A DNA stretch of 64,000 nucleotides from Bacteroidales bacterium. Its GTDB lineage: Bacteria > Bacteroidota > Bacteroidia > Bacteroidales > UBA932. This document shows positions 1 through 30,501 of this stretch, piece by piece. The stretch's first letter is position 1, and each line of letters begins with the position of its first letter. Below the pieces are notes generated by a model, which was given only the letters and a program-made list of their open reading frames with translations, did no database searches and was not told where the DNA came from. The translations under genes and the position numbers were made by a program. The stretch is taken from NCBI GenBank assembly GCA_015060405.1, contig SUYN01000015.1, positions 2,821-66,820 on the forward strand, given 5' to 3'.

Positions 1-1758
1 AGGGGCTCATACGACAATCTTCAGTACAAGGGACTGGATCCAAGCTCGGACTATGTCATCTATGTATATGGAATTACTCCTGAAGGAGAGCGGACCACGG
101 ACATATATTCTGCAGCGGCGACAACCCTGCCTCCTTATGAGGGACCTATCACCCTTGCCTTGGAGGTGTCTGAGACCGACAACATCATGGACATAACGGT
201 GACACCTTCCCACGATGGAGTGAACTATTACTGGAACCTGATGGACAGGGCGACATATGACGGATATGCTGCAGAGTGCGGCGATGATCCGACTGCTGTC
301 TTCCAGGCATATATAGAATGGGATATACAGGATCTGATCGATTACGGTGACATTACCGTGCGCGGTGAATATTACGAATGGTACAGTGATGTCAATAAGG
401 TGAACAGCCAGTTCGAAAGCCTTGCTCTCACGGAATATATAGTGTTTGCATGTAAGTGGGATGAGGATTGCAGGCTTACCGGGGAACCGGCTTATGTATG
501 GCATACGACAGGAGATGTCCCTCCTTCGGACAATGTCATCACAGTCACTGTCGGTGACGATGTAGACCAGTCTTCGTTCTTCGTAGATGTGAAGACAACC
601 AATAATGACCCATATGTGATGATCGCCGAACCGTCAAAGTTCATGCAGGGGATGGACGAGGATGAGATATATGCCCATCTCATGGAGGATTACGGTACCT
701 GGGGCATTCTCAATTTCGTGTATGAGGGCAGTCTCTCCGGCCGTATGACAGGGCTTGAGCCCGACACTGAATACACTATGGTGGTTTTTGGCTACAAGGC
801 AGGAAAGAAGACTACTGCCATGCAGAAGTTTACCGTCAAGACATCACCTGCGGGTCCTGCCGAAGATTGCGTGTTCGATTTCGAACTTCTTGAATCAGGA
901 TCCAATTCTCTGAAGATTACCGTTACACCGTCAGATGCGGCACATTTCTACTATTGGTATGTCTATCCTACAGATGCGACGGCAGATCAGGTCCGAGAGG
1001 ATATAACAGACCTGATAAACGGTTCATATTATGGGGATATGTACGAGTTCAGCTATTGGGAGCTCTCGCAAGGCCGCTCGACCGGTACCATATCCTTCCT
1101 TGCTCCGGAAACAGAGTATAAGGTCGCAGCTGTGGTCATGGATGAGGAAACCGGAGAGTTCCTGGCAGATGTAATCTTCAGCGGACCTTTCAGCACTTCA
1201 GAAGCTGATTATGCAGACATCACGATCACTGCCTCGTATGACAAGTTCTATGACGGAGACGACCTGTATGACATCAATCCTGATGCCGGTGCACAGTACC
1301 GGGGATATGCCATGGTGCCTGTATCGATTTCGATAGACGGAGACTACAAGTCCTACTACTACACGATGATAGACTATGTGACGGATCTGGAGAATCCGGA
1401 CGTCTATCCTGATGCAGCACTTTATGAAACCCTCGTATATTATGGGGTATATTATGCTGAAACAGTGAATTTCCGTGCTCCATGGAATAAGACCGTGCTT
1501 CTGGCAGCGATGGCGATAGACGACGAAGGACGATACAGCCGTGTATTCCGTCAGAAGTGTCAGTTCAGGAAGTATAATGCCTCTGACATAGAGGATCTCT
1601 TCACTAAATCATGGACCTTTGCCGGAGGAGTGGACATACCGTATGCATTGCCTGAGCCGGGAATCAAGCTGGAAAAAGAACGTCGCACCGGAGATGACAG
1701 GTTCTGTTCAGAGAACCTCGATAAGATAAGGCGGGAACACAGAATCAGAAAATACTGA
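1..1758 (+). CDS. 5'-truncated repeat-module surface protein (hypothetical), first visible gene of the Sus-like operon
   Basis: Frame 1 is open from base 1 (RGSYDNLQYKGLDPSSDYVIYVYGITPEGE...), so the Met at 160 is internal. The stop at 1756-1758 lies 11 nt before the SusC-like start. Internal repeats are visible: 'ITVTPSHDGVNYYWNL' / 'ITVTPSDAAHFYYWYV' and 'LDPSSDYVIYVYGITPEG' / 'LEPDTEYTMVVFGYKAG' / 'APETEYKVAAVVMDEE'. These suggest several Ig/FN3-like modules. No named family recognised. Confidence 0.6.
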   Translation, partial: RGSYDNLQYKGLDPSSDYVIYVYGITPEGERTTDIYSAAATTLPPYEGPITLALEVSETDNIMDITVTPSHDGVNYYWNLMDRATYDGYAAECGDDPTAVFQAYIEWDIQDLIDYGDITVRGEYYEWYSDVNKVNSQFESLALTEYIVFACKWDEDCRLTGEPAYVWHTTGDVPPSDNVITVTVGDDVDQSSFFVDVKTTNNDPYVMIAEPSKFMQGMDEDEIYAHLMEDYGTWGILNFVYEGSLSGRMTGLEPDTEYTMVVFGYKAGKKTTAMQKFTVKTSPAGPAEDCVFDFELLESGSNSLKITVTPSDAAHFYYWYVYPTDATADQVREDITDLINGSYYGDMYEFSYWELSQGRSTGTISFLAPETEYKVAAVVMDEETGEFLADVIFSGPFSTSEADYADITITASYDKFYDGDDLYDINPDAGAQYRGYAMVPVSISIDGDYKSYYYTMIDYVTDLENPDVYPDAALYETLVYYGVYYAETVNFRAPWNKTVLLAAMAIDDEGRYSRVFRQKCQFRKYNASDIEDLFTKSWTFAGGVDIPYALPEPGIKLEKERRTGDDRFCSENLDKIRREHRIRKY

Positions 1759-1769
1759 CTCCTCCAGCC

Positions 1770-4700
1770 ATGAGAAGACTCCTGAACATATCAGTGCTCA
1801 TATTCATTTCCCTGGTGTCGTATGCCCAGGGAAATGTTGCCGTGCTTAAGGGAAAGGTGATAGATTCGTCCGATGGCTATCCGTTGGTCGGAGTGTCCGT
1901 CATAGTCACCGGAACTGAATACGGTATCACTACTGATGTTGACGGGTTCTATGAGCTAAGGATTCCTCAAGGGGAGTGCGAGGTGACTTTCTCGTACCTG
2001 GGCTACGATGACGAAGTCAGGGTATATACGGGGAAGAATGCCCAGTCCTTTTCGCGTATCGTGATGAGCATGAATACCGAACAGCTTGCCGATGTGGTTG
2101 TGACCGGTGTGTACGAAAGGAAGAAGGAAAGCTTTACCGGTGCATCAGCTACATTCAAGACTGACGAGCTCAAGGCCGTAGGATCTGCCAATGTCCTGCA
2201 GAGTCTCAAGACTCTCGACCCTTCCTTCAGAATGATGGAGAACACCAGGTTCGGATCCAATCCGAACATGATGCCTGACATCGAGATACGAGGCAAGACA
2301 AGCATCGCCGGCCTGAAGGAGGAGTATGGCACGGACCCTAACCAGCCGTTGTTCATCCTTGACGGATTCGAGACCACCTTGGAGACGATAATGAACCTCA
2401 ATATGAACCGTGTGGCTTCTGTGACCATCCTCAAGGATGCGGCCTCCACTGCCATATACGGTTCGAAGGCTTCCAATGGTGTTGTCGTCATTGAGACCAA
2501 GGCACCGTCCCGAGGCAGGCTCCGGTTGTCGTATAAGGGGGATTTCGGGCTCTCTGTGGCTGACCTTACCGACTATAACCTGATGAACTCAAGGGAAAAG
2601 CTTGAGTTTGAGGCGCTCGCGGGAGTGTACAAGGACAATTCCGGTGACCCTTTCGCACAGATCAGACTTGACAACCTGTACAATGAGAGACTCAAGGAGA
2701 TCGAAAGAGGGGTGGATACTTACTGGCTGAGCGAACCGGTGCGCACAGGTTTCACTCACAAGCATAATGTCTATGCCGAGGGTGGCGAGGATAAGATACG
2801 TTACGGAATCGGCCTCAGTTACGGTGAAGTGGCAGGAGTGATGAAGGACTCTGACAGAAGGACTCTGGAAGGGAATGTCGATCTCATATACCGCTCCGGC
2901 AAATTCCAGTTCAGCAACAAGCTGTCCATAAACTGGCTTGATGTGACCAATCCGGTGGTGTCTTTTGCCGAATATGCATACGCTAATCCGTATTACAGGA
3001 AATACAACGCTGACGGAGGAGTCGACAGGTATCTGTACTACCCGCAGGAAGGTGTGGATGATTATCCTGTCGCCAATCCTTTGTGGAACGCCCATCTGAA
3101 CAATTGGGACAAGGCCTCAGGCATGGGATTCACCAATAACTTCATATTCGAGTGGTTTGTCACAGAGGAATTCCGCTTCCGTGCGAAGTTCGGCCTCTCC
3201 AGGCAGGATGATGATGAGCAGATGCGCCTGTCACCGCTTCACACCCGTTTTGACGATATGGGAGAGACAGAGAAAGGACTGTATTCCCATACGCAGATCG
3301 ATGAATTGTCATATGAGGGCGACCTTGCCGCCACATTCGGCAAGGTGGTGGCGCAGAAGCACATGATCAATGCTGTGGGCGGCTTCAATTTCAGCAGCGG
3401 CAGCAGGGAGGTGTACGGCTACTCGGCAAACGGCTTTACAGATGACCGTTTTGATGCTCCCTCATTTGCAAACGGCTATCCTTCAGGCGGTTCGCCGGAC
3501 TATAGTGAAAGCCTGAAACGTGCCGCAAGTTTTTATGTGAACGGAGGATATGTCTACGATGAGAGGTACCTGATGGACTTCAACTACAGGCTTGACGGAG
3601 CATCCATGTTCGGAACGGGCAACCGTTTCAGGAACACATGGTCGGTGGGAACAGGCTGGAACATCCACAAAGAGCCGTTCATGTCCGGAGATGATTTCTT
3701 CTCGATGCTGAAGCTTCGTGGCTCGGTCGGCAATCCCGGCAATCAGAATTTTTCGGCGTACCAGGCCTTCTCCACATACAAGTTCAACGGATGGATGACC
3801 AATGTCTTCGGAACAGGCGTCATTCTCAATGCATTAGGAAATGCCGGACTTGCCTGGCAGGAGACTGTCAACTATGACATAGGTGCCGACATCTCTTTCT
3901 GGGGCGACAGGGTCAACCTGACTCTGGATTATTATTGGAAACATACCGATCCGCTTCTTGCCGTCATCACCACACCCGGTTCCATGGGTGTCACCAGCAT
4001 TGCGATGAATGCCGGAAGCCAGAAGACAGAGGGATGGGAGGCAGTATTCAGGATTTCACCGGTATACAGGCCTGCTGAGGGGATCAATTGGAACATAAGC
4101 ATCAATGCTGTCAGTTCGCGGTCCGAGTATGCCGACATAGGCGATTCATTCAGTGCGTTGAATGAAAGCGGCAAGACTTCGCTTGCAGGCACCACGAGGT
4201 ATTATGACGGAGGAAGCCCGACAGCCATCTGGGCTGTGCGGTCTGCCGGCATCGATCCGGCTACCGGAAAGGAGCTCTTCATAAAGAAGGACGGTTCATA
4301 TTCCTTTACATACGATGTCGATGATGAAGTGGTGGTCGGAGACACACAGCCGAGAATAGAAGGCCTTTTAGGTACGATGCTCTACTATAAGGGCCTGTCA
4401 CTTGGATGCTATTTCCGTTACAGATGGGGAGGCCAGGTGTTCAATTCCTCGCTTTTCCAGAAGGTCGAGAACATCGGGACCCAGGATGTATATAACAATC
4501 ATGATAAGAGGGCTCTCTATGACAGATGGTCCGAGAATAACAGGGAGGCATATTTCAAGGGCATCTCCATGGTGCAGAAGACCGAGAAGTCATCCCGTTT
4601 CGTCATGGATGACAATTCGATCGCAGGAGAGTCCTTCAACCTGGGTTACGAATTCCCTGACAGGATCGTCAGAAGGATGGGAATGGGTGCAATGAACATC

Positions 4701-4808
4701 CAGCTCATCATGACTGATGTCTTCAGGGCATCTACAGTCAGGGTGGAGAGGGGTATCGATTACCCGTTTGCCAGAAGTGTGACCATGTCGTTAGGCATAA
4801 CATTCTAA
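1770..4808 (+). CDS. SusC/RagA-family TonB-dependent outer-membrane transporter
   Basis: 1012 aa. Signal peptide, carboxypeptidase-regulatory-like domain (VLKGKVIDSSDGYPLVGVSVIVTGTEYGITTDVDGFYEL), plug region (ILKDAASTAIYGSKASNGVVVIETK), long barrel ending in aromatic F. A SusD-like gene follows 5 nt downstream. Confidence 0.93.
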   Translation: MRRLLNISVLIFISLVSYAQGNVAVLKGKVIDSSDGYPLVGVSVIVTGTEYGITTDVDGFYELRIPQGECEVTFSYLGYDDEVRVYTGKNAQSFSRIVMSMNTEQLADVVVTGVYERKKESFTGASATFKTDELKAVGSANVLQSLKTLDPSFRMMENTRFGSNPNMMPDIEIRGKTSIAGLKEEYGTDPNQPLFILDGFETTLETIMNLNMNRVASVTILKDAASTAIYGSKASNGVVVIETKAPSRGRLRLSYKGDFGLSVADLTDYNLMNSREKLEFEALAGVYKDNSGDPFAQIRLDNLYNERLKEIERGVDTYWLSEPVRTGFTHKHNVYAEGGEDKIRYGIGLSYGEVAGVMKDSDRRTLEGNVDLIYRSGKFQFSNKLSINWLDVTNPVVSFAEYAYANPYYRKYNADGGVDRYLYYPQEGVDDYPVANPLWNAHLNNWDKASGMGFTNNFIFEWFVTEEFRFRAKFGLSRQDDDEQMRLSPLHTRFDDMGETEKGLYSHTQIDELSYEGDLAATFGKVVAQKHMINAVGGFNFSSGSREVYGYSANGFTDDRFDAPSFANGYPSGGSPDYSESLKRAASFYVNGGYVYDERYLMDFNYRLDGASMFGTGNRFRNTWSVGTGWNIHKEPFMSGDDFFSMLKLRGSVGNPGNQNFSAYQAFSTYKFNGWMTNVFGTGVILNALGNAGLAWQETVNYDIGADISFWGDRVNLTLDYYWKHTDPLLAVITTPGSMGVTSIAMNAGSQKTEGWEAVFRISPVYRPAEGINWNISINAVSSRSEYADIGDSFSALNESGKTSLAGTTRYYDGGSPTAIWAVRSAGIDPATGKELFIKKDGSYSFTYDVDDEVVVGDTQPRIEGLLGTMLYYKGLSLGCYFRYRWGGQVFNSSLFQKVENIGTQDVYNNHDKRALYDRWSENNREAYFKGISMVQKTEKSSRFVMDDNSIAGESFNLGYEFPDRIVRRMGMGAMNIQLIMTDVFRASTVRVERGIDYPFARSVTMSLGITF

Positions 4809-4813
4809 GATTT

Positions 4814-6259
4814 ATGAGGAAGATATTGACATATATGACTTTATGTCTCATGTTATCCACCTCCTGTGATGTGTGGCTGGATGTGAAACCTTATGACAAG
4901 ATGTCTCAGGATGAGCTGCTTTCTGAAGAGGAAGGATTCATCAAGCTTCTGAACGGGATATACATAGAACTCAACAGCGATATGCTTTATGGCGGAGCCC
5001 TGTCTGTCGAGATGCTGGAAGTCATGGGAGGAGCATATATCATGGGTACAGACAAGTCGGTCTGGGGTAATTACATCGACCTGGCTTCATACGAATACGG
5101 AACACCATATTGGCGTGCGCGCCTTAATGAGACCTGGAACAAGGCCTATTCGCTCATTCTGAACTGCAATCTCCTCCTGGAGAACCTTGAGAAGGGCGGC
5201 GTTCGCTTTACAGGGGACAACTACAAGATAATCAAGGGAGAAGCTTTAGCACTCCGCGCCATGCTCCATTTCGACATGCTGCGCCTCTTCGGCCCGGTCT
5301 TCTCGCGTCATCCGGACCAGCAGGCCATCCCGTATTACAGAAAATGCTCTACTCTTCCCAACAGCCGGCTCACTGCCCGTGAGGTGGCTCAAGAGGTGAC
5401 GCATGATCTTCTGGAGGCCCGTATCCTTCTGGCAAACGATCCGATACGTACAGAGGGAACAATGACTGATGCCCCTTCGGACGGCTCTTCTGTATTCATG
5501 TATTATAGGAATCTCAGACTGAACTACTATGCGGTTACCGCTCTTCTGGCACGCTCAAGCCTTTATTTCGGTGATATGAAGTCAGCCTACGGCTACTCTG
5601 TCGAAGTCATCCGGGCTGCTGAGGAGGGTGTCTTCCCATTCGTGGACAGAAGTCTGGTGACCGGCTCGCCGGATGATCCCGACAGGATATTCTCGTCTGA
5701 AGTCATCTTTGCGCTTTCCCATTCTCAAAGGAACAGGCTCTTCAAGAATTATTTCGATCCCAGCCGCATTCCGAATTATGTGTTCCGTATGGACAATGAC
5801 CTGATGAGCAACAGGATCTTCGGGGGCGGGACGCTCACCGGAGGAAGCCAGGATGATTACAGGTATCGTGTCAATTGGGTGGCGACAGGTGCCAACAGGT
5901 ACTTCTACAAGTATGCAGATATGGTACAGACCGGAAATGTATGCAATACGATGATACCTATGCTCAGACTTGGGGAAATGTATCTCATCGCTGCCGAAAG
6001 CCGTTCCGAGGATATAGGCGCCGGCCTTGTGTATGTCAACAGGCTGCGTGCAAAGAGAGGGACCGGAGCGCTTCAGCAGCTCACCCGTGAGACCCTGCAG
6101 TATGAATATATCCGCGAACTGTATGGAGAAGGACAGCTCTTCTATATGTATAAGAGGATGTATTCTCCGATAATCTTCTCTGTCTCGGAGAATTCCAACC
6201 CTCAACCTGATGATGCAATATTCACTGTCCCTGTACCGGACACAGAAACTGAAAACTGA
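4814..6259 (+). CDS. SusD/RagB-family nutrient-binding outer-membrane lipoprotein
   Basis: 481 aa. Lipobox (LMLSTSC). SusD-type helical motifs (YSLILNCNLLLENL, ALALRAMLHFDMLRLFG, MIPMLRLGEMYLIAAES, LYGEGQLFYMYKR). Sits immediately after SusC. Confidence 0.9.
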   Translation: MRKILTYMTLCLMLSTSCDVWLDVKPYDKMSQDELLSEEEGFIKLLNGIYIELNSDMLYGGALSVEMLEVMGGAYIMGTDKSVWGNYIDLASYEYGTPYWRARLNETWNKAYSLILNCNLLLENLEKGGVRFTGDNYKIIKGEALALRAMLHFDMLRLFGPVFSRHPDQQAIPYYRKCSTLPNSRLTAREVAQEVTHDLLEARILLANDPIRTEGTMTDAPSDGSSVFMYYRNLRLNYYAVTALLARSSLYFGDMKSAYGYSVEVIRAAEEGVFPFVDRSLVTGSPDDPDRIFSSEVIFALSHSQRNRLFKNYFDPSRIPNYVFRMDNDLMSNRIFGGGTLTGGSQDDYRYRVNWVATGANRYFYKYADMVQTGNVCNTMIPMLRLGEMYLIAAESRSEDIGAGLVYVNRLRAKRGTGALQQLTRETLQYEYIRELYGEGQLFYMYKRMYSPIIFSVSENSNPQPDDAIFTVPVPDTETEN

Positions 6260-7008
6260 TGAACAGGAATCTATATCTTATACTGCTGGCTCTGGGTGTG
6301 CTTCTCTCCTGCGAAGAGCGCACGCCGGATCTGTTCGGGGATGTGACGGGGGTGTATTTCCATAATACTACCGGTACGATGTCTGTCACAGACAGTCTGG
6401 ACCTTACATTTGTCTATGAGGCTTCTGATGTGATGGAGGTCCCTGTAAGGATACAGCTCCTTGGAAGGCCGTCGGATGAGGACAGGCCGATTGATGTTTC
6501 TGCAGCTTCCACGGATGCTGTGGAAGGTCAGGATTACATATTGCCTCAGACTTCTTTTCTTCCGGCAGGTGCATCATCGGTGGATTATGTGGTGACTCTG
6601 CTGAGAACAGATGCATTGAAAAGCGGGAAGAAGATGCTGGAACTTGAACTTCATGCGAACAGCCATTTCTCTCTTGCTGTTTCAGAACTTGACCAGGTGG
6701 CCGACACTGTGTCTCTTGTCAGGTTCAGGATAATGTTTTCGGATATGTTCACCTCGCCTCCATCTGCATGGGACGAGAATCTTGTGGGAGAATTCACCCA
6801 GCAGAAATTTGAGCTGATCTGCAAGGTGCTGCAGATAGACCCGGCCGACTTCAACGATCAGACCAGGATAACTCTAGCGAAACTGCTTTATATCGGGGCG
6901 GAGATGACTGCCTATGTACGGGAGCAGGTCGAACTTAAAGGCAGAGGGGAGGCCTTCGATCAGGATGCGTTTGATCCGGAGACAGGCGAGCCGTTGATAT
7001 TCAGATGA
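6259..7008 (+). CDS. DUF4843-like lipoprotein (Calx-beta-like N-terminal module)
   Basis: 249 aa. Lipobox (LGVLLSC). The start overlaps the SusD stop (TGATG). 'AVEGQDYILPQTSFLPAGASSVDYVVTL' looks like a Calx-beta-type motif. The position after SusD and before a PKD-like lipoprotein matches a recurrent Bacteroidales arrangement. Family assigned from memory, not from a search. Confidence 0.5.
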   Translation: MNRNLYLILLALGVLLSCEERTPDLFGDVTGVYFHNTTGTMSVTDSLDLTFVYEASDVMEVPVRIQLLGRPSDEDRPIDVSAASTDAVEGQDYILPQTSFLPAGASSVDYVVTLLRTDALKSGKKMLELELHANSHFSLAVSELDQVADTVSLVRFRIMFSDMFTSPPSAWDENLVGEFTQQKFELICKVLQIDPADFNDQTRITLAKLLYIGAEMTAYVREQVELKGRGEAFDQDAFDPETGEPLIFR

Positions 7009-8570: not shown

Positions 8571-9931
8571 TGATGAGAAACTTTAAACTATTGGCTGCAG
8601 TCCTTCTTATTGCGGCAGGATGCGGCAGAGCCGTGCAGGAGGACATTGTCCTGGATTTCAATGTTTCAGAACCGGTGTCCGGCGAAGTCGTGCTCGTGGT
8701 TCATGATAAGATAAGCACCGTGTCCCTTGATCAGGACGGAAAGGCACGGATTGTCCTTGAAGGATATGAGGCCGCATATGCCAGACTCTTTTATGGAAGA
8801 GAATTCAAATGGATATATATCGAAGGGGGAGACCATGCTGCCGTCTCTTTCAATGGAAATGATTTTGACTCATCCTTTGCCTATGATGGTGAGAAGGGGG
8901 AGGCTGTGAACTACCTCAACACCATCACCCTTACGGCCTTGCCGGACGAAGACTATGCCCTTCCGTTTGACGAGTATCTTGCGAAAGTCCGGAAGAAGGA
9001 GCAGGAGGCTGTGAAGCTTATGAAGGCCAACGGACTTGGTAAGGCAGGTAATTTCGAGACTCTTGAAGAAGGCAGGATCAGATATTCCTATGCCACATTG
9101 CTGCTCATGCATCCTATAGGACACATGATGATGACGGGACAGCCGGGATACGAGCCGGACGAATTCTATTACGACACTATCGATTCTTATCTGGATGCCG
9201 GTCCGCTGTATGCTGTTCTTGATGAATTCCGTTCTTTTGCAGCGGAAGCCGCACATGTCCTGGATGAGGGGAACCGTAATGTGTCTGCACTATATCCGAA
9301 GACCCTGGCTCAGATGAGGTTCATTTCGGACAGGTTCTCTGATGAAGAGACAAGGAACACCCTGCTTCATTATCTGGCTGCCGCATATGTCGACAGTTAC
9401 GGAACCGATGATATCACAGATATGGAGAATATCTACCGGACGTATGTCAAGGATGAGGCGATGCTTGCGGAATTCGAGGCAAAGTGTGACAGATGGGACC
9501 GTTCGACTCCGGGCAAGCCTTCTCCAGCCTTAAGCGGAGTCGATGTGGATGGAAAGACATGGACTCTGGATGATTTCAAGGGTAAGTATGTATATATAGA
9601 CATGTGGGCTACCTGGTGTGCACCGTGCAGGCGCGAGATGCCTTTCCTCAAGGAACTGCATAAGCAGTTTGAGGACGCAGCTATCGTATTCCTCGGTCTG
9701 TCGACTGACGGTGACAGGGATAAATGGAAGGAAATGGTTCAGTCAGGTGATCTTACTGGAGTCCAGCTGTATCTGGGTCCGCAGAGCGGGTTCCAGAAAG
9801 CCTACAACATCGAGGCTATTCCGAGATTCATTCTGCTGGACAGGAATGGCGTCATCATCAGCAACGATATGACAAGACCGTCTGATCCGGCCACGGCAGA
9901 AACGCTCAATGCACTTGAAGGAATAAGATGA
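8570..9931 (+). CDS. TlpA/ResA-like thiol-disulfide oxidoreductase lipoprotein with a large N-terminal domain of unknown function
   Basis: The track start at 8567 is TTG; the ATG at 8570 overlaps the upstream stop (TGATG). Lipobox (LIAAGC). The C-terminal ~130 aa form a thioredoxin fold with a CxxC motif: 'FKGKYVYIDMWATWCAPCRREMPFLKEL ... IPRFILLDRNGVII'. The N-terminal ~320 aa are unassigned. Confidence 0.85.
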   Translation: MMRNFKLLAAVLLIAAGCGRAVQEDIVLDFNVSEPVSGEVVLVVHDKISTVSLDQDGKARIVLEGYEAAYARLFYGREFKWIYIEGGDHAAVSFNGNDFDSSFAYDGEKGEAVNYLNTITLTALPDEDYALPFDEYLAKVRKKEQEAVKLMKANGLGKAGNFETLEEGRIRYSYATLLLMHPIGHMMMTGQPGYEPDEFYYDTIDSYLDAGPLYAVLDEFRSFAAEAAHVLDEGNRNVSALYPKTLAQMRFISDRFSDEETRNTLLHYLAAAYVDSYGTDDITDMENIYRTYVKDEAMLAEFEAKCDRWDRSTPGKPSPALSGVDVDGKTWTLDDFKGKYVYIDMWATWCAPCRREMPFLKELHKQFEDAAIVFLGLSTDGDRDKWKEMVQSGDLTGVQLYLGPQSGFQKAYNIEAIPRFILLDRNGVIISNDMTRPSDPATAETLNALEGIR

Positions 9932-11271
9932 TTCATAGAACGATGATCTCAAGGTCTTTCATATACGTGATGCTGGCCATGTGCCTGTTATGTGCCTGCA
10001 ATGAGAATGGCAGGGAATCCGTTGATGGCGGGGACAACCCTTTGTCTGAGTGGACTCTTCCCGTCATGGTGGCCCAGGCTGGGGAGGGGACTGTCCAGTG
10101 GAACGGATTTACGGAAGAGACAGTGCTGCTGCTGGTGTCTCCGGATGGCTCGGAATACCGCTTGGAAATCACCGTCCTTACGGATTCAGGAGTGAACTTC
10201 AGAGTCCCGTCCGATGTGCCGGAAGGAACATATATGATGGTCATGGAACAGGACGGCAGGACAGAGATGGGACAGATCCGGATTACAGGAAGGAGCCTTC
10301 CTGTGAGCGATGTCAGGATGCCTTCAGAGGCGGTTGCAGGTGCAGTCGTCTCAATAGCCGGAATCGGGTTTGAGGATGGCTGCAGCATAGTCCTTGCCGG
10401 TTCTGCCGGAGAGGAACATGTCCTCGGGACCACCCTCTCATGTGATGGCGTCTGTGTCACGGTACCCGACGATGTTTCAGAAGGGACATACGATGTCTAT
10501 CTCCTTCAGGAGGGGGGCAGGTGGCTGATTTCCGATTCATTCAGAGTCACTTCCGCATCGGTGGCCAGAAGATGCACGTCAATCCGGTATATTGCGCCAT
10601 ATGTGGGAGAGGCGGAAATAATGCTGGCCTGGGACATTTCCGATGATGTCCTGACGCTTTCCGAGTATCTTGTCCAGGAGGGAGTACCTGAATTGAATGC
10701 CTACGACAGCTATGTGCGTAGGGACGAAGGATACTATGCCCTTGAACATGACGGATTTGAGTCTTCAAATGATATGGAGATGCTTTACAGCCGTGATCAG
10801 GACGGCAATGTCGTGTCGTCAGATGTGCTCATATATGGTGATGACCGTACTACAGCCTTTACATGGACCTATGACTCATCCGGACTTCTTGTGGACATCT
10901 CTTCTCCAAGGATGTCCTTCCGCACTCTTTCGTATGAAGAAGGAAGGATTACAGCCTTTCATCAGACATCTTTCGAATATGCACCTGATGGCCCGGTGAA
11001 CAGCGTGTATGCCCCTGATGTGATCTGGGCCTATATGTCGCTGATGGACAGGAACGATCCGTTTGTATATCTCCCATATCTTCTCGGATGGTATTCCACT
11101 GCATCCGACAGGCTTCCGTCGAAGATCCTCAAGCCTTCTCCTTCAGGTTCCGGCGTCCTTTCATGCAGCCTTGAATATGAGTTTGATGATGACGGCTACG
11201 TCGTGTCCATGAACTGGTCGGAAGGAAGTGAGCGGCACCGCATCGAGTTTATTTATTCCGATATGATATAA
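9928..11271 (+). CDS. Hypothetical lipoprotein with two Ig/IPT-like modules and a YD-repeat-like C-terminal half
   Basis: 447 aa. ATGA overlap with the TlpA-like gene. Lipobox (LLCAC). Paired modules end in 'VPSDVPEGTYMMVMEQDG' and 'VPDDVSEGTYDVYLLQEGG'. The C-terminal part has YD-like turns ('FTWTYDSSGLLVD', 'YSRDQDGNVV'). Confidence 0.55.
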   Translation: MIHRTMISRSFIYVMLAMCLLCACNENGRESVDGGDNPLSEWTLPVMVAQAGEGTVQWNGFTEETVLLLVSPDGSEYRLEITVLTDSGVNFRVPSDVPEGTYMMVMEQDGRTEMGQIRITGRSLPVSDVRMPSEAVAGAVVSIAGIGFEDGCSIVLAGSAGEEHVLGTTLSCDGVCVTVPDDVSEGTYDVYLLQEGGRWLISDSFRVTSASVARRCTSIRYIAPYVGEAEIMLAWDISDDVLTLSEYLVQEGVPELNAYDSYVRRDEGYYALEHDGFESSNDMEMLYSRDQDGNVVSSDVLIYGDDRTTAFTWTYDSSGLLVDISSPRMSFRTLSYEEGRITAFHQTSFEYAPDGPVNSVYAPDVIWAYMSLMDRNDPFVYLPYLLGWYSTASDRLPSKILKPSPSGSGVLSCSLEYEFDDDGYVVSMNWSEGSERHRIEFIYSDMI

Positions 11272-11298
11272 AATATCGGTATATGACGAAAATTATAT

Positions 11299-11306
11299 TA
11301 TATTTG
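11299..11306 (+). promoter_or_regulatory. Candidate Bacteroides-type -7 box (TATATTTG) inside the operon
   Basis: Exact match to the TAnnTTTG consensus, 25 nt upstream of the ATG at 11331, in the only AT-rich gap (59 nt) of the operon. No clear -33 TTTG seen. Confidence 0.25.
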
Positions 11307-11330
11307 AAATATTTTATCTAACAGATTTAA

Positions 11331-13205
11331 ATGAAAGCATTTACGTTCTTCAGATTGTTACTGGTCCAGCTTCTGGTGTCGGGAGTCGTGATGGCCTGTC
11401 AGAAAGACCCTGTCAGCGGTGATGGTGACAACGACGGGCCTCAGGATCCTATTGTCGAGAATCCTTCCGAAAACGGAATATCCAATGTAAGCAACAGTCA
11501 TGAGAATAAGGAAGTCTCATATAGAGGCGCTACCATCTCAATAAAGTTTGATGCCTCTGCGTCCTGGACGGCGTCTCTGGAACTCGAGACTGAACCTGAG
11601 AGCGGATGGGCGGCGATAAGTCCGTCTACTCAGAGCGGAGAGGCGGGGGACAGTCGCACCGTAAGGGTCGTCTTTGAAACCAATAAGTCGGACGTAAGCA
11701 GGACTGCCGGACTTTGGGTGACTGCAGAAGGTTTCGAGCCTCTGTGCATTGCCGTCCTGACTCAGGCAGCATCAGGTACAAGTGCCGATTCGAAGATCAA
11801 TCAGGCCCTCAATACATATATGCATGAGATCCTGGCAGAGGATTATCTTTTCAATGATGCATACAACTCGCAGGAGATTGACCTTACTGTGGCGTACTCC
11901 GATTTCCTTTCCACCCATCTTCTGAGTCTTGGAGATGTGAATCTTGAGGACGGAGGCTATTACAGGGCGACCCAGCCTGATCCCGGCAAGAGGTTCATAT
12001 ATACGAACATTGTCGAGGTCCAGCCACTCACGCGTGCCGCTCAGACAGATGGACTCGGTTTCGGCCCCTTCATCTCGACAGCTCTTTCGGATGCGTCCTC
12101 TCTTATGGGACTGGCACCGTCTTATGTGCGCAGAGGATCACCTGCAGAAGCTGCAGGCCTCCGCAGGGGTGACATCATATATGCGGTCAACGGAACCCAG
12201 CTGACAACTTCCAACTACAGGAATTACATGACCGGCCTGTACCAGAACCCGAGCGGCTCGTACAGATTCTCGTTCTTGAGATTTGAGCAGAACGGAAAAG
12301 GAGGCTATGATCTGAATTCATATGAATCAGGTACCGTTTCCGCATCAGTTCATATGTATGATCCTGTGCTCCATGCGTCAGTCCTGTCTGATCCGGAAGA
12401 TGATGCGGTGAAGATCGGCTATCTCGTGTACGAATCTTTCGATCTCAATTCGCAGGAACTGCTTGAGGAGACAGTCAAGGAGTTCGCCCAGACGGGAATA
12501 ACTGATATGATCCTCGACCTCCGCTTCAATTCGGGAGGAGCCGTGGCACAGAGCCGCTGGCTGTCCGGATGTATTGCGGGAAAGGCAAATTATTCCAAGA
12601 CCTTCACCAAGGTCGTCTACAATGACGGCTCGACCGAGGACTGGAAATTTGATTACGGTTACACCAATGACACCGATAACCTCGGCCTGCCGATAGACCT
12701 GGGCCTCGACAGGCTGTACGTGATTTCTTCATATAATACCGCCTCTGCAGCGGAACTTGTCATCAGTTCTCTCAAGGGAATCGACTTCCCTGTAAAGATG
12801 ATAGGTTGCCGTACAGAAGGAAAGAATGTCGGTATGACCGTTTCGGAGACCACATACAATGGCAGGCGTTTCCAGTTCTCTCCAGTGACGTTCTGGGTCA
12901 GGAACGCCAAGGACTGGGGAGACTACAAGGACGGAATCGAGCCGGATGAATATGTCAACAACGACAACACCATCATGACAGATGACGCGGACAATGTGTT
13001 CCCGTATTCGTTCTCGGACTGGGGGAACATGGACTATAATATCGCTCTTCAGTGGGCTTACTGTGACATTACCGGCCGGCCGAGATGGACAGAAGCCCCT
13101 TTGACCAGGTCATGCCCGGCTGTGTCGCTTTGTCCTGTAGACTTCCAGCCATACGGGCTCTCACACGGAAGATACGGCAACCTCATGTATGATAACAATA
13201 ACTAA
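11331..13205 (+). CDS. S41-family (C-terminal processing / Tsp-like) serine peptidase with N-terminal BACON-like domain and PDZ-like segment
   Basis: 624 aa. Lipobox (VVMAC). BACON-like segment 'SASWTASLELETEPESGWAAISPSTQSGEAGDSRTVRVVFETNKSDVSRTAGLWV'. PDZ-like 'AAGLRRGDIIYAVNG'. S41 signatures 'LDLRFNSGG', catalytic-Ser motif 'NTASAAELV' and Lys motif 'RTEGKNVG'. Confidence 0.85.
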   Translation: MKAFTFFRLLLVQLLVSGVVMACQKDPVSGDGDNDGPQDPIVENPSENGISNVSNSHENKEVSYRGATISIKFDASASWTASLELETEPESGWAAISPSTQSGEAGDSRTVRVVFETNKSDVSRTAGLWVTAEGFEPLCIAVLTQAASGTSADSKINQALNTYMHEILAEDYLFNDAYNSQEIDLTVAYSDFLSTHLLSLGDVNLEDGGYYRATQPDPGKRFIYTNIVEVQPLTRAAQTDGLGFGPFISTALSDASSLMGLAPSYVRRGSPAEAAGLRRGDIIYAVNGTQLTTSNYRNYMTGLYQNPSGSYRFSFLRFEQNGKGGYDLNSYESGTVSASVHMYDPVLHASVLSDPEDDAVKIGYLVYESFDLNSQELLEETVKEFAQTGITDMILDLRFNSGGAVAQSRWLSGCIAGKANYSKTFTKVVYNDGSTEDWKFDYGYTNDTDNLGLPIDLGLDRLYVISSYNTASAAELVISSLKGIDFPVKMIGCRTEGKNVGMTVSETTYNGRRFQFSPVTFWVRNAKDWGDYKDGIEPDEYVNNDNTIMTDDADNVFPYSFSDWGNMDYNIALQWAYCDITGRPRWTEAPLTRSCPAVSLCPVDFQPYGLSHGRYGNLMYDNNN

Positions 13206-13215
13206 ATATTACATT

Positions 13216-16134
13216 ATGAAATTTTCTTTGAACTTCAAGTCAGGATTGCTGAAGGCCATGACCGCCCTGATGGCGGTGTGCCCGGCAGCTGTGTCCTGTT
13301 ATGATGATTCTGCCCTTCAGGAGCAGATTGACATGTTGGTGGACAAGCTCTATGAGCTGGAGACAAGACTAAGTAACGAGATTGATGCCCTTCAGGACAT
13401 GCTGAGAGGAAAGGCTCTGATAACCGATGTGTCAACCAACGCGGCTACAGGTGTTACGACGATCACCCTTTCCACAGGAAGCACACTCCAGCTGCTTCCT
13501 GAGCAGGATCTTGAGTCGTTCGTCACATATATCACCCTGGGAGACGGAGAAAACTACTGGGCCTACGTGGACGAAAGCGGAAAGAAGCAGCTTTTCCTCG
13601 ACAAGGACGGAAAGGCCATTCCGGTCCTGAGCGAGACTCCGGAGGTCGTGACTGTCGATGGCGAGACCTACCTTGTTGTCGGTGGAGTGCGTTATCCTCT
13701 GTCAGGTAACTCGGTGTTCTCGGATTATGAGCTCGTCACTGACGAACTGACAGGCGAGGTCTATGCCGTGACATTCACATTCGGCGATGATATGACTTTC
13801 ACTGTCACCGTGGATGGTGCATGCGGTTTTTATTTCGTGAAGCAGTCGGGATGGTCTACAGTGATGGTTTCAGACTGGTATATTGCAAACGGACTCACGG
13901 AACGCGTGTCTGTCGATGCCCGTGGCGTCGTGGACTATGTCCTTCAGATCCCTGACGGATGGAGGGTAAAGGAGCATAAGGACATCTATATGGGTGGTCT
14001 CTATCTTGATATTACGGCTCCATCCAAGGAACTCGTCGAGTCAGGAGTGGCTGCAGCAGAGGGTGACCTCAAGGTGGTGGCAGTGCTTGAAGGCGGAAAG
14101 GCTACTGTGGCACGTCTGTATCTGACTACGACTCCATTCAGGAATTTCGGTGTGTCTCTTGGAAATGTGACTGCACAGATGTACAACGGTCTTCAGAAGT
14201 TTGTCTACGGCGTATGTCCGGAGGCGGCATTTGATGAAGAGGTGCTGTTTGAGACGGCTTCCGGCCTCCTGGAGGCTTATGACTATCCGGCAGGCTTCGG
14301 ATTGTCGACAGATGACCTTTCAGCAGCGGTTTCTGATGTGCTCGGATCGGAACCTGTAGCCGGCGAATCTTATGTGTTCTGGGCTCTCCCTGCGATGTAC
14401 TATCAGAATGAGGAAGCGGCAGGATACTATCTGGCAGAAGGTACCTTCGTCACATCATCATTCAACTATGCTTCAGTGGATTTCGAGATTACAGGAGAAA
14501 AGTTCCGTGATGCAACCCTTACGATGGATGTCCTCGGAGCCGATGCTTATTATATGGCTCTTGTCCCTGCCGCAGACTATATGCTGGAAGATGTGCTGTA
14601 TGCCCTGAATAATTCATACTATGAGCCAAAGACATCGCCTATGTCCTACATCGGCTCTGTCTTTGAACTGGCAGGTGTGACAGCTGAACCGGCTACTGAT
14701 TATGTAGCCTGGATCGCCCTTGCGGAAGAAGGCAGGACCTACACAGAGCAGGATCTTATCGTCTGCAGGTTCTCTACCCTGAAACTTGTGGAGGGAGCAG
14801 ATGTGAAGGTCGTTTCAGGCGAGGTGTCTGCCACTGCGCTTGATGTGAAGGTGCCTTTGACGGCAGAAGGAGCGGAGACTCTTTATTATACATTCATGAC
14901 ATCATCTGATGCAAAGAAATATACGGATGATAAGGACAAGGCTTCATATCTCCTTGAGAATGGAATAAGCATAGACGGTACAAGTGCAGAGGCCAGACTC
15001 TCGGATGTCCTGACAAAGACAAAACCTGCAACAACCTATGTGCTTCTTGCTGTAGCATCTGACAGCGAGGGCAGGTATGGCGAAGTGCTAACACTTGAAT
15101 GCAAGACGACTGACATCATATATAATGACCTTGAGGTCAAGATAGAGCTTGCCGCCAATGATCCCGGCAATGTTGTGATAAACATATCGTCCGAAGGTGC
15201 AGTGGGCTACCTCTATTGGGTAGGTAAGATTTCCGACAACACATGGAAAAGCTCGAATTACCTTGGAGGCAGTGCTGCGACAGCTCAGGAGTACATGTAT
15301 GTGAACCCGACACATTCGCGTCTTACTGACGTAATGAACAGGTATCCTGTCATTGATGGCGTCATGACTCTTACTGATCTTTCGAATGGTGTGGAACATG
15401 TCATCGTGATCATGGCGCAGGCTGCAGACGGTACTTATTCAAAGGCTTATGAGATGAGGTTCACCACAAGGACTGTCGCAATAGGTACCATCGTCACCTC
15501 GGATGACAGCAGGTGGGAGTCAGCCAGACCGACCGTAGACTTCTTGATGAAAAGCTTCTATCCTGCATCAGGAATGATGTCGGGCCAGTATGCGGCGGAC
15601 ATTACCATCCCTCTCGGTTACACAGGCTATGTGCTTCTTGGAACAGACGCATATTTCACCGAGGGTGAGACTCAGGTCGAACTGTCTGTAGAGGAAAAGA
15701 TTCTCAGTGTGATAGGATTTGCTGACAACAGCAGGGACGTAAGCATCCTTATCGATGAGGAGGCATGGGTTACCCAGGGTTACCCTTATGGCTATGAATT
15801 CTATCATTATGAACATGGTTCTCCTGCGAACGGAACAAGACCGGGAGCAGCTGTCATCTGGGCGAGTCAGGAGTTCCATGATCAAAGGTGTGACTGCCTC
15901 GTCGATCCGCCTGCGACAAGGATCATAAATGGAGTGGAAATGCCGATGAATTATGTCGTTCTGATAAATGACGGAAATCCTGTGAAGTTCGTCCAGCCGA
16001 GCGCTATCGGAAGCACTACTGAGGTGATTGACAGAATCTTCATCGTGTGTCAGGATGCGGAAGGAAACTGCTATGAGACATTTGAATACGATGTTCCTTT
16101 CGAGTATTTTGCCAATGCACAGCCAAAAGAATAG
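13216..16134 (+). CDS. Large repeat-module lipoprotein with N-terminal coiled coil (hypothetical)
   Basis: The ATG at 13216 gives a lipoprotein signal (MKFSLNF...LMAVCPAAVSC); the listed start at 13189 overlaps the peptidase gene. Coiled-coil segment 'LQEQIDMLVDKLYELETRLSNEIDALQDML'. Repeated modules resemble those of the 1-1758 protein ('ADAYYMALVPAADY', 'AETLYYTFMTSSDA', 'AVGYLYWVGKISDN', each closed by 'TDYVAWIALAEEGRTY', 'TTYVLLAVASDSEGRYG', 'EHVIVIMAQAADGTYS'). Confidence 0.6.
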   Translation: MKFSLNFKSGLLKAMTALMAVCPAAVSCYDDSALQEQIDMLVDKLYELETRLSNEIDALQDMLRGKALITDVSTNAATGVTTITLSTGSTLQLLPEQDLESFVTYITLGDGENYWAYVDESGKKQLFLDKDGKAIPVLSETPEVVTVDGETYLVVGGVRYPLSGNSVFSDYELVTDELTGEVYAVTFTFGDDMTFTVTVDGACGFYFVKQSGWSTVMVSDWYIANGLTERVSVDARGVVDYVLQIPDGWRVKEHKDIYMGGLYLDITAPSKELVESGVAAAEGDLKVVAVLEGGKATVARLYLTTTPFRNFGVSLGNVTAQMYNGLQKFVYGVCPEAAFDEEVLFETASGLLEAYDYPAGFGLSTDDLSAAVSDVLGSEPVAGESYVFWALPAMYYQNEEAAGYYLAEGTFVTSSFNYASVDFEITGEKFRDATLTMDVLGADAYYMALVPAADYMLEDVLYALNNSYYEPKTSPMSYIGSVFELAGVTAEPATDYVAWIALAEEGRTYTEQDLIVCRFSTLKLVEGADVKVVSGEVSATALDVKVPLTAEGAETLYYTFMTSSDAKKYTDDKDKASYLLENGISIDGTSAEARLSDVLTKTKPATTYVLLAVASDSEGRYGEVLTLECKTTDIIYNDLEVKIELAANDPGNVVINISSEGAVGYLYWVGKISDNTWKSSNYLGGSAATAQEYMYVNPTHSRLTDVMNRYPVIDGVMTLTDLSNGVEHVIVIMAQAADGTYSKAYEMRFTTRTVAIGTIVTSDDSRWESARPTVDFLMKSFYPASGMMSGQYAADITIPLGYTGYVLLGTDAYFTEGETQVELSVEEKILSVIGFADNSRDVSILIDEEAWVTQGYPYGYEFYHYEHGSPANGTRPGAAVIWASQEFHDQRCDCLVDPPATRIINGVEMPMNYVVLINDGNPVKFVQPSAIGSTTEVIDRIFIVCQDAEGNCYETFEYDVPFEYFANAQPKE

Positions 16135-16160: not shown

Positions 16161-16198
16161 GAGGATGACCGCTTTTCACAAGGCGGTCATCCTCTTTT
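16161..16198 (+). terminator. Rho-independent terminator closing the nine-gene operon
   Basis: Perfect 12-bp stem GAGGATGACCGC / GCGGTCATCCTC (16161-16172 / 16183-16194), 10-nt loop, then TTTT. Confidence 0.8.
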
Positions 16199-16245: not shown

Positions 16246-16842
16246 ATGAAACGTCAATTTGAAAACATCAGAAGGAGAGCTTCGCAGTCGGTACGCCACT
16301 GGTGGCTCTTCATGATCGCCGGAATCATCGGAATCATTCTCGGCATTACGGTATTTGTCTTTCCACTCGAAAGCTATGTTGTCCTCAGCATACTTTTCGG
16401 GGTCCTCATGCTGGCTGTCGGTGCGGCCAAGCTCATTGCAGCCTCAGCAAGCGACAACTTCTTCATGATGAAGAATTATGTCCTCATAGGAGGTGTCCTG
16501 GATGTTGTTCTCGGAATATTCCTTTGCGTATATCCTGAAATCACCCTGGTGCTTCTTCCGATCATGATGGGATTCTGGATGCTGTACAACAGTTTTGTCC
16601 TGATCGGACTTGCCGGAGATCTGGATACCTATGGCGTTCCCGGGACCGCCTGGCTTTCCGCCGGTGCCATCCTTCTTATGATTCTGTCGATTATTGTCCT
16701 GGTAAATCCTTTCGGTGCGGGAATTGCAACTGTAGTGCTGCTTGCGGGAATAGGACTGATTGTTTTCGGAATCCTTCTCTGTGTCTTGTCAAAGACCCTC
16801 AAGGAGGTACATACTTATTTCGATACGGAACCTTCCCGTTGA
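16246..16842 (+). CDS. HdeD/DUF308-family integral membrane protein
   Basis: 198 aa with six hydrophobic spans. The N-terminal 'WWLFMIAGIIGIILGITVFVFP' pattern is typical of DUF308 repeats. Confidence 0.7.
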   Translation: MKRQFENIRRRASQSVRHWWLFMIAGIIGIILGITVFVFPLESYVVLSILFGVLMLAVGAAKLIAASASDNFFMMKNYVLIGGVLDVVLGIFLCVYPEITLVLLPIMMGFWMLYNSFVLIGLAGDLDTYGVPGTAWLSAGAILLMILSIIVLVNPFGAGIATVVLLAGIGLIVFGILLCVLSKTLKEVHTYFDTEPSR

Positions 16843-17744: not shown

Positions 17745-17870
17745 GTTTCTGCTGTTATTGATCTGATGCAAATATATAATATTTTTTTGCTTGCAGATGC
17801 TCCTTTTTCAGATTAATTCCATAACTTTACAAGTTGTGCAAAAAACTAAAACTGATAATCAGCATCCGAT

Positions 17871-20063: not shown

Positions 20064-20069
20064 CACTTT

Positions 20070-22922: not shown

Positions 22923-22923
22923 T

Positions 22924-24958: not shown

Positions 24959-24963
24959 CCCCT

Positions 24964-27495: not shown

Positions 27496-27563
27496 TCTGT
27501 CATAAATGTAACAGATGACTTTCTGCGATATTTCTGCCGATGTAATTAATCAAGGATATATTT

Positions 27564-27571
27564 TATATTTG
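27564..27571 (+). promoter_or_regulatory. Candidate Bacteroides-type -7 box (TATATTTG) upstream of xylB
   Basis: Exact TAnnTTTG match 27 nt upstream of the xylB ATG, in a 102-nt AT-rich gap. Confidence 0.3.
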
Positions 27572-27597
27572 TATCTATAAAGCTAATTGAAAGAAAT

Positions 27598-29064: not shown

Positions 29065-29096
29065 TCAATAATCAATAAAGCAAAATACTAATCACT

Positions 29097-30413: not shown

Positions 30414-30416
30414 TCC

Positions 30417-30485: not shown

Positions 30486-30501
30486 CTGTCCCAAAAACAA
30501 T

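Follow-up and report, generated by a model that had tools for sequence, protein, structure and literature searches.

Gut Bacteroidota obtain their nutrients mainly through SusCD systems, and almost all characterized ones take up glycans; the known non-glycan substrates (peptides, cobamides, phospholipids) have each opened a new topic. Complexes carrying a non-glycan ligand in the form of bound oligopeptides are established for RagAB of Porphyromonas gingivalis and BT2261-2264 of Bacteroides thetaiotaomicron. Here we analyzed a stretch of 64,000 nucleotides (contig SUYN01000015.1; hereafter the window) of an uncultured herbivore-gut Bacteroidales bacterium related to Candidatus Cryptobacteroides, in which positions 1-16134 hold nine open reading frames (ORFs), all on the plus strand and back to back, including a susCD pair. 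An initial annotation, made from the sequence alone, had read these genes as one Sus-like operon, plausibly for a surface machine that reduces and clips disulfide-rich proteins or glycoproteins and imports the fragments. Our analysis showed that the nine-gene "operon" is a composite. A six-gene import cassette (module A), encoding SusC, SusD, a DUF4843 lipoprotein, a PKD_2-family lipoprotein, a TlpA/ResA-like thiol-disulfide oxidoreductase and the lipoprotein P7, is nested in a second module (module B), which comprises giant lipoproteins (P1 and P9 in the window), an S41 serine peptidase and Omp28-like proteins.

Comparison with described SusCD systems

Like RagAB and BT2261-2264, the locus combines a SusC/RagA barrel with a SusD/RagB lid, has no carbohydrate-active enzyme (CAZyme) in the operon and carries extra lipoproteins directly downstream of the pair (BT2261 and BT2262 in B. 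thetaiotaomicron). In Pfam and NCBIfam searches, SusC matched the SusC/RagA family TIGR04056 with 550 bits (E = 1e-164; cut-off 368 bits) and contained Plug and CarbopepD_reg_2 domains and no STN signaling domain. SusD matched SusD-like_3 (3.3e-19) and SusD_RagB (1.1e-7), and its lipobox LSTSC is followed by an aspartate. The susC- and susD-like genes are adjacent, as in a polysaccharide utilization locus (PUL). No linked regulator of the SusR, hybrid two-component system or extracytoplasmic function (ECF) sigma/anti-sigma type was found in the window or in the 10 kb upstream. Among solved structures, SusC was no nearer to RagA (185 bits) or BT2264 (72.8 bits) than to the SusC of a glycan utilisome (PDB 8aa4, 193.6 bits), and SusD gave no match to RagB at E ≤ 0.001. 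Judged by these scores, similarity of SusC and SusD is uninformative as a predictor of the substrate. The DUF4843 and PKD_2 proteins were considered as homologues of BT2262 and BT2261, respectively, which found no support: DUF4843 had no relative in the PDB, profile search included, PKD_2 had no sequence match to any PDB chain, and no chain of 5fq6-8 was among the top 50 Foldseek matches of PKD_2. In addition, unlike in our locus, no TlpA or S41 gene has been described with either RagAB or BT2261-2264. The locus is SusCD-utilisome-like and closest in spirit to RagAB and BT2261-2264, with no specific relatedness to RagAB. The precedent of peptide-importing SusCD pairs, to which the initial annotation had appealed, is provided by the published oligopeptide-bound complexes of these two systems. 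We found no functional study of DUF4843, PKD_2 (PF16407), DUF4595 or a SusCD-TlpA cassette in a literature coverage that was incomplete.

With Sus-like PULs and utilisomes, the locus has in common the susC-susD pair and, behind it, genes for surface lipoproteins that contain Ig, IPT and BACON domains. Whereas Sus-like PULs carry a surface glycoside hydrolase (GH), it encodes thiol-disulfide oxidoreductases and a peptidase instead, and no GH, lyase or esterase was found. Neither the nine window proteins nor five proteins encoded upstream contained a GH, polysaccharide lyase (PL) or carbohydrate esterase (CE) domain according to Pfam and NCBIfam, so that the locus lacks the at least one locus-encoded CAZyme of a PUL; as a positive control, the same scan detected GH13, GH31, GH43 and GH2 elsewhere in the window. 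Separate rescans of the unassigned parts (N-terminal domain of TlpA, propeller of PKD_2, middle and C-terminal parts of P9) at E ≤ 1 gave no Pfam match. A hidden PL29 lyase (BT3328) in P9 was rejected with 46.1 bits against a cut-off of 1100 bits, the match covering only residues 20-156, i.e., the DUF4988 N-terminus. The AlphaFold model of P9, built with 38 homologues (predicted local distance difference test, pLDDT, 81), shows a coiled coil followed by a chain of about eight beta-sandwiches. Its top PDB neighbors in Foldseek were only fn3, Ig and macroglobulin (MG) chains, and a hidden lyase or hydrolase was also rejected on this basis, the C-terminal 210 aa not having been searched alone. 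For PKD_2, a GH-type propeller was rejected, since BT1487 headed the fold matches together with generic WD40/YWTD propellers, and neither a sialidase nor a GH43 or GH32 was among these top matches. The statement that no GH, PL or CE is recognizable thus held for all 14 proteins, and the models of P9 and PKD_2 revealed binding-type folds in place of a hidden hydrolase or lyase. By domain content, the S41 peptidase and the CxxC oxidoreductase remained the only recognizable enzymes, as originally proposed.

An import cassette nested in a second module

Direct reading of the junctions confirmed the tight packing of the nine co-oriented genes, with intergenic gaps of 11, 5, 59 and 10 nt and start/stop overlaps of the type TGATG at 6257-6261 and 8568-8572 and ATGA at 7005-7008 and 9928-9931 (Table 1). 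The gap sizes hinge on the choice of start codons: on identical contigs, metagenome gene callers place the starts of SusD, TlpA and P7 later, that of SusD by 36 nt, which results in a 41-nt gap. The strong terminator postulated at 16161 escaped a simple scanner and was recovered by a folding and shuffle test. Its stem at 16161-16194 is followed by TTTT and has a folding energy of -29.5 kcal/mol (z = -5.8), and none of 200 shuffled sequences folded equally well. A lipobox, proposed for every product except SusC, was present in all seven complete non-SusC products of the window and, as judged from the full-length form in locus L001, also in P1. The proposed start of the cluster at position 1 had to be abandoned: the window edge cuts the cluster, at least four more co-oriented genes lie upstream, and the complete co-directional surface-lipoprotein locus has 14 genes or more, of which the region covers the 3' two-thirds. 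On contigs with identical SusC (L001-L005), the genes upstream, all co-oriented, encode in this order a 1038-aa protein, a 377-aa Omp28-like protein, an 805-aa BACON protein, a 370-aa Omp28-like protein and P1 (778 aa, BACON). The gaps following the 1038-aa gene measure 1-15 nt, and another plus-strand gene lies 46 nt upstream of it.

We scanned one genome per GTDB species with PKD_2 patterns and compared the ORFs of the resulting 63 loci with the window proteins. The loci originated from Candidatus Cryptobacteroides and ruminant-gut Bacteroidales metagenome-assembled genomes (up to 78% identity), Muribaculaceae, Odoribacter, Alistipes and Prevotella, and also from Bacteroides bouchesdurhonensis, B. 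congonensis and B. finegoldii. The exact order SusC-SusD-DUF4843-PKD_2-TlpA-P7 was found in 43 of them. PKD_2 and TlpA were adjacent in 54 of 63 loci, as were TlpA and P7, the others including cut contigs and genes missed by the crude ORF caller. SusC orthologues, present in 58 loci, were 66-88% identical. S41 was present in 14 loci and P9 in 13; Omp28-like genes were found in 11 loci and giant lipoproteins in 18. All loci bearing any of these fall in a Cryptobacteroides-like clade. The recurrence of the gene combination, which the initial annotation had stated, is therefore true of the six-gene core but not of the peptidase.

In four related genomes (L073, L077, L078, L079), module B was present without SusCD, its 1038-aa protein being 64-81% identical to that of our locus. 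There, flanked by folP, genes for a ResA-like redoxin, a DUF6029 protein, three Omp28-like proteins, giants of about 760 and 1031 aa and a further Omp28-like protein are followed by a BACON giant (in three of the four genomes, with another Omp28-like gene behind it in two), P1, S41 and P9. In L078, the sole contig reaching beyond P9, infB follows on the opposite strand. P1 (68-75% identity to the window) and S41 (69-71%) are separated by 5-10 nt in these genomes, with no SusCD between them, and it is exactly this intergenic position that is occupied by the 9.5-kb six-gene core in the window. Because the S41/giant module exists without SusCD in four related genomes, in which P1 and S41-P9 adjoin, the nine genes are not one evolutionary unit, as had been assumed. 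By gene order and sequence relationship, S41 and the giant lipoproteins belong to the separate, lineage-specific module B. In L015 and L018, a P1/Omp28-like pair is inverted between P7 and S41, so that the module junction has been rearranged more than once; in L008, a BACON protein stands where S41 would be. Composition gave no evidence of a recent transfer of the core, G+C content (0.49-0.52) and third-position G+C content (0.53-0.63) showing no clear step throughout.

The only sizeable intergenic gap of the cluster, an AT-rich spacer of 59 nt, coincides with the junction between P7 and S41, i.e., between the two modules. Reading of its sequence revealed no hairpin. It contains a TAnnTTTG-like motif, TATATTTG, which fits the Bacteroides -7 promoter consensus TAnnTTTG and from which we infer a candidate promoter; chance alone, however, would yield about four motifs of this kind on each strand of a 16-kb sequence.

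Within the core cassette, the DUF4843 protein was assigned to PF16132 (4.7e-18). Besides the lipobox cysteine, C188 (window 6820-6822, motif FELIC.VL) is its single invariant cysteine in 30 orthologues; as a lone conserved thiol in a TlpA-containing cassette, it could be a mixed-disulfide site. The PKD_2 protein (PF16407, 8.5e-23) consists in its AlphaFold model (pLDDT 75.6; predicted template-modeling score 0.71) of an Ig-like domain and a beta-propeller. TlpA contains a Redoxin domain (9.3e-20), and the WCxPC motif, WCAPC in the window, is retained in 59 of 61 orthologues. It shares with the TlpA/ResA/CcmG reductases the thioredoxin fold, this motif and a membrane tether, and its profile strongly matched the Bacteroides structural-genomics domain 2lja (2.5e-62). 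In contrast to these reductases, it scored below the cut-offs of the NCBIfam equivalogs TlpA (70.3 versus 230 bits) and ResA (73.4 versus 170 bits), has an additional N-terminal domain of 300 aa and is encoded within a SusCD cassette rather than a cytochrome-maturation operon. The N-terminal domain gave no Pfam or PDB match; it occurs in 187 representative clusters, whose full-length members have nearly all about 450 aa and the same architecture. P7 has two IPT/TIG Ig-like domains and a DUF4595/YD-repeat-like C-terminal domain. A profile of 35 orthologues matched the surface glycan-binding protein SGBP-B (PDB 6e57) at 8e-5 and teneurin/Rhs YD shells at 1e-3, while the DUF4595 match of the C-terminus was weak (0.0025), as it was in homologues.

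Regarding module B, full-length P1 (778 aa; L001 7653-9989) has a lipobox, a BACON domain (5.5e-9) and fn3-like domains and is a paralogue of the upstream 805-aa protein (32% identity over the full length), just as P9 is a paralogue of the upstream 1038-aa protein (26% identity). P9 starts with a coiled coil and a DUF4988 N-terminus (2.5e-10), followed by the beta-sandwiches and a C-terminal mixed alpha/beta domain. The latter (residues 860-955, window 15793-16081) contains H867, H888, C892, D939 and D947, invariant in 38 homologues, and the near-invariant C945 and C952; the invariant residues could form a metal site or a cryptic active site. The "repeat" character attributed to the giant lipoproteins persists at the level of the fold but not of the sequence, as BLAST (E ≤ 0.05) found no internal repeats.

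The S41 protein exceeded the Peptidase_S41 cut-off of 24 bits with 63.2 bits and contains a PDZ_6 domain (residues 265-294, 2.4e-9). Its Ser and Lys motifs TASAAE and TEGK are present, TASAAE and T.GK being kept in 13 of 13 orthologues; while these motifs and the PDZ domain were as first described, the BACON-like domain amounted to a faint Pfam match in a homologue. The protein has the S41 domain, PDZ domain and motifs of the C-terminal processing peptidases (Prc/Tsp, CtpA, GFO_1087). It differs from them in that it is a lipoprotein, has an acidic N-terminus of the export type and begins with an additional beta domain, and it remained below the cut-off of the NCBIfam equivalog GFO_1087 (172.8 versus 455 bits).

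The upstream 370- and 377-aa proteins, paralogues with 43% identity, passed the Pfam Omp28 threshold of 34.9 bits with 56.5 and 77.7 bits. We know of no established function for the Omp28 family, which includes Omp28 of P. gingivalis and DUF1223/Atu2684; our locus type differs from its described members in up to five tandem paralogues. All copies have a CxxC motif (HTGATCSNCP), kept in 10-11 of 11 orthologues, which in an alignment coincides with the CxxC of Atu2684 (PDB 2axo), a thioredoxin-like DUF1223 protein. NCBIfam also contains a family named "Omp28-related selenoprotein", and this, too, hints at a redox-active CxxC. In module B of other genomes, up to five Omp28-like CxxC paralogues stand in tandem, and in most cases the next gene is one for a giant lipoprotein. 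Where module B occurs without SusCD, its upstream half (L073 2141-9909; also L077, L078 and L079) encodes three of the Omp28-like CxxC lipoproteins and a ResA-like redoxin with a signal peptide and the motif SCKPC, and the DUF6029 protein (524 aa) ends in SITTSF like an outer-membrane barrel, which it probably is. To judge from these motifs, the thiol-redox theme is stronger than the initial annotation, which did not extend to the two Omp28-like CxxC lipoproteins just upstream, could know.

A proposed role in protein foraging and the competing explanations

From gene content, gene order, motifs, folds, mosaic structure and conservation, we infer a substrate class, a topology and an assignment of reductants to their targets. 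The resulting model, to which we give a probability of roughly 0.35, is that the locus serves protein foraging: a disulfide-bonded proteinaceous substrate would be captured and C-terminally trimmed at the surface, imported in a TonB-dependent manner and reduced in the periplasm. The giant beta-sandwich lipoproteins would bind the disulfide-bearing polymer at the cell surface, the Omp28-like thioredoxin-fold lipoproteins would act on its disulfides and the PDZ-S41 peptidase would trim exposed C-termini. SusD, DUF4843, PKD_2 and P7 would capture the fragments and pass them to SusC for import, and TlpA, tethered on the periplasmic side, would reduce the disulfides of the imported fragments.

Several observations are in favor of this model. 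No CAZyme was found in the 14 proteins, GHs being readily found in neighboring loci of the window. The modeled folds of P9 and PKD_2 are of binding type, and P7 resembles IPT lipoproteins of the SGBP-B type. The catalytic motifs of TlpA, S41 and the Omp28-like proteins are conserved; the alignment of the Omp28-like CxxC with that of 2axo and the five Omp28-like proteins plus a secreted ResA-like redoxin in module B elsewhere point in the same direction. In 18 loci, giants of the same families lie next to the core, and the variety of their arrangements suggests a functional coupling. In one other locus, an M16 peptidase adjoins the core.

The proposed topology is derived from the lipoprotein N-termini. 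In Bacteroidota, lipoproteins are directed to the cell surface by an export signal that consists of acidic residues right after the lipidated cysteine (PMC5080379, PMC6222051). For SusD, DUF4843, PKD_2, P7, S41, P9, P1 and the giants, nearly every orthologue has one D/E or more at positions +1 to +5 (means 1.3-2.0), so that SusD-like acidic residues would mark all lipoproteins but TlpA. No D/E was present in this interval in 35 of 58 TlpA orthologues (mean 0.45). According to this sequence feature, TlpA probably faces the periplasm, which makes a role as surface reductase unlikely, and the other lipoproteins are probably surface-exposed. In the periplasm, reductases of the TlpA type can be recharged. 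The idea of a machine that reduces, clips and imports proteins is thus retained at the probability stated above, but with the TlpA step moved to the periplasm and S41 assigned to a separate module.

A number of points weigh against protein foraging. The core occurs without S41 in 49 of the 63 Bacteroidales loci; S41 and the giants need not feed the window SusCD, as module B exists without SusCD in the four genomes described above, and the nesting of the core in module B could be a tolerated insertion. The nearly equal scores of SusC against the glycan SusC and RagA and the missing RagB match of SusD do not discriminate between the substrate models, and glycan loci typically contain BACON domains, DUF4988 (common with the PL29 lyase BT3328) and IPT domains like those of SGBP-B. 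The fold-level test covered two of the 14 proteins, P9 and PKD_2. Moreover, 23 of 58 TlpA orthologues have one or two acidic residues, the export-signal rule being a heuristic, and no CcdA/DsbD gene is present in the window.

A less likely reading, though the strongest alternative, is that the locus serves the utilization of a glycan or glycoconjugate whose degrading enzymes are encoded elsewhere. The giants, P7 and PKD_2 would then be surface glycan-binding proteins, S41 would strip the peptide part of a glycoprotein, and the thioredoxin-fold proteins would serve protein maintenance. The BACON domains of P1 and the 805-aa protein, the DUF4988 N-terminus that P9 has in common with the PL29 lyase family of BT3328, and the matches of P7 to SGBP-B of a mixed-linkage glucan locus and to cyclodextrin glucanotransferase Ig domains would fit, as would the fact that the best solved relative of SusC is that of the glycan utilisome 8aa4. 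In Bacteroides, Alistipes and Odoribacter, genes for an ECF sigma factor and a FecR anti-sigma factor stand ahead of the core, and SusC is about 100 residues longer and bears an STN domain, an arrangement typical of host-glycan loci in B. thetaiotaomicron. GH20, GH2 and sulfatase genes lie close by in one Bacteroides locus. However, these three were single occurrences in the neighbor sample, and no GH, PL or CE, absent from the 14 genes, was recurrent across the 63 loci. The GHs downstream in the window lie beyond the strong terminator and an opposite-strand gene and are not there in related genomes; in L006 and some others, infB takes the place of the downstream sugar-catabolism cluster. The uniformity of SusC across several families (66-88% identity) would also be unusual for glycan-specific transporters.

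We regard it as unlikely that the core imports a defined, non-polymeric ligand for which no hydrolysis at the surface is needed, for example a cofactor, a metallophore or a metabolite containing sulfur or a disulfide. High-affinity capture would in that case fall to PKD_2, DUF4843 and P7, TlpA would be the reductant of the imported ligand or of its carrier, and the nesting in module B would be incidental. Consistent with this possibility, the core lacks any hydrolase in most genomes, SusC is highly conserved across Bacteroides, Alistipes, Odoribacter, Prevotella and Cryptobacteroides, and the ECF sigma/anti-sigma/STN control of orthologous cores is of FecIRA style. The top Foldseek match of PKD_2 was BT1487 (PDB 4r5o; E = 1e-12, template-modeling score 0.41-0.50, 11% identity). 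BT1487, also called BtuK2, is one of the surface lipoproteins encoded by the cobamide-uptake operon of B. thetaiotaomicron, and its paralogue BtuK1 binds cobalamin tightly (PMC12751083). Both PKD_2 and BtuK2 are lipoproteins with an Ig domain and a beta-propeller and are accessory to TonB-dependent uptake. Btu systems, however, pair BtuB with BtuG, whereas the cassette pairs SusC with a SusD lid. The likeness to BtuK is confined to the fold, with no sequence match, and no riboswitch, cobalamin riboswitches included, was found upstream in seven loci (L001 and six core-only loci). A set of four accessory lipoproteins with a complete SusD lid is more typical of systems that capture oligomers, and giant lipoproteins repeatedly adjoin the core.

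Two further proposals have a still lower probability. In the first, which might be combined with any substrate, TlpA and the Omp28-like proteins would be maturation or repair factors for the cysteine-bearing lipoproteins of the locus itself. TlpA-family proteins are classically reductants in envelope protein maturation. Across orthologues, PKD_2 has five invariant and one near-invariant cysteines; P9, P7 and S41 have 7-10 cysteines each, including in P9 the C-terminal C892, C945 and C952. This proposal appears improbable, since P7 has no conserved cysteine past the lipobox and DUF4843 just one, five to six thioredoxin-fold genes per locus would be excessive for maintenance, and the fusion of TlpA to a conserved, architecture-specific 300-aa domain suggests a dedicated partner or ligand. 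In the second, as improbable in our view, module B with its DUF6029 barrel, secreted ResA-like redoxin, up to five Omp28-like proteins, giants and S41 would be a previously unrecognized, SusCD-independent surface system for extracellular thiol-disulfide chemistry on cross-linked host or dietary proteins (mucin, keratin, seed storage proteins), which in this lineage captured the SusCD-TlpA cassette as one transcription unit.

The rest of the window and the meaning of the cassette

The coordinates of the locus and its surroundings are listed in Table 1. The terminator, a DUF308 gene and an opposite-strand S1/P1 nuclease gene part the locus from a sugar-catabolism cluster, whose GH43, GH31 and GH2 genes lie at 18.4-27.5 kb. 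A small stand-alone DUF4369 protein is encoded just downstream of the locus; DUF4369 is commonly found in Bacteroidota as an N-terminal domain fused to TlpA-like thioredoxins. The starch-type PUL on the minus strand, canonical in its gene content, served as the CAZyme positive control. Genes for a putative redox-active C_GCAxxG_C_C protein and a GGGtGRT-family protein, apparently unrelated to the locus, sit among housekeeping genes (relA/spoT, uvrB, pyrophosphatase, aldolase).

Table 1. Positions of the features of the locus and of neighboring genes in the window
Feature	Position	Strand	Remarks
P1, 3' part	1-1758	+	Frame open from base 1; C-terminal 585 aa of a 778-aa giant lipoprotein
SusC	1770-4808	+	1012 aa; core cassette (module A) gene 1
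SusD	4814-6259	+	481-aa lipoprotein lid; alternative start 4850
DUF4843 lipoprotein	6259-7008	+	249 aa
PKD_2-family lipoprotein	7005-8570	+	521 aa; Ig-like domain and beta-propeller
TlpA/ResA-like thiol-disulfide oxidoreductase lipoprotein	8567/8570-9931	+	Thioredoxin domain, WCAPC
P7 lipoprotein	9928-11271	+	447 aa; final gene of the core cassette
AT-rich 59-nt spacer	11272-11330	+	Junction of core cassette and S41-P9
S41 serine peptidase lipoprotein	11331-13205	+	624 aa; N-terminal beta domain, PDZ, S41 catalytic domain
P9 giant lipoprotein	13216-16134	+	972 aa
Intrinsic terminator	16161-16198	+	GC-rich 15-bp stem and T run
DUF308 gene	16246-16842
S1/P1 nuclease	16935-17771	-	
DUF4369-domain protein	17871-18416		Small, stand-alone
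Sugar-catabolism cluster	18423-31986	+	GH43, GH31, UxuA, SDR, GH2, FGGY kinase, xylose-isomerase-like TIM barrel, sugar transporter
Starch-type PUL	32096-48020	-	
GH31	32096-34639	-	Starch PUL
CBM26	34791-36947	-	Starch PUL
GH13 alpha-amylase	36950-38290	-	Starch PUL
GH13 alpha-amylase	38290-39642	-	Starch PUL
CBM26 lipoprotein	39648-41483	-	Starch PUL
SusD	41497-43305	-	Starch PUL
SusC	43310-46255	-	Starch PUL
DUF6377 regulator-like	46464-48020	-	Starch PUL
C_GCAxxG_C_C protein	54129-54623	-	Putative redox-active protein
GGGtGRT-family protein	62280-63290	+	

Around the core in other genomes, the neighbors were otherwise mixed and included housekeeping genes, with one M16 peptidase. This M16 (insulinase-type) gene (L033 1008-3839), two genes upstream of the core SusC, encodes a second, unrelated peptidase adjoining the core cassette. 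Three Endonuclease_NS proteins among 61 neighbor representatives were considered as a clue to nucleic-acid uptake and rejected, as none was tied to core-adjacent positions. The upstream neighbors of the L028 type, which include a thioredoxin-reductase-like gene, were attributed to housekeeping (SDR, BamD, RNA polymerase omega, RecN) and coincidence.

The mosaic structure of the locus is a warning against deriving function from the gene list of a single operon: the peptidase that inspired the idea of protein foraging sits in the other module. If true, module B with its captured cassette would be the first outer-surface disulfide-breaking, protein-foraging machine described in Bacteroidota. The six-gene cassette itself is widespread across Bacteroides, Alistipes, Odoribacter, Prevotella and Cryptobacteroides, and we found no described function for it. 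Since it is present in cultivable species (Bacteroides finegoldii, B. congonensis, Alistipes), where the ECF sigma/anti-sigma switch could turn it on, the question of its substrate is directly testable.

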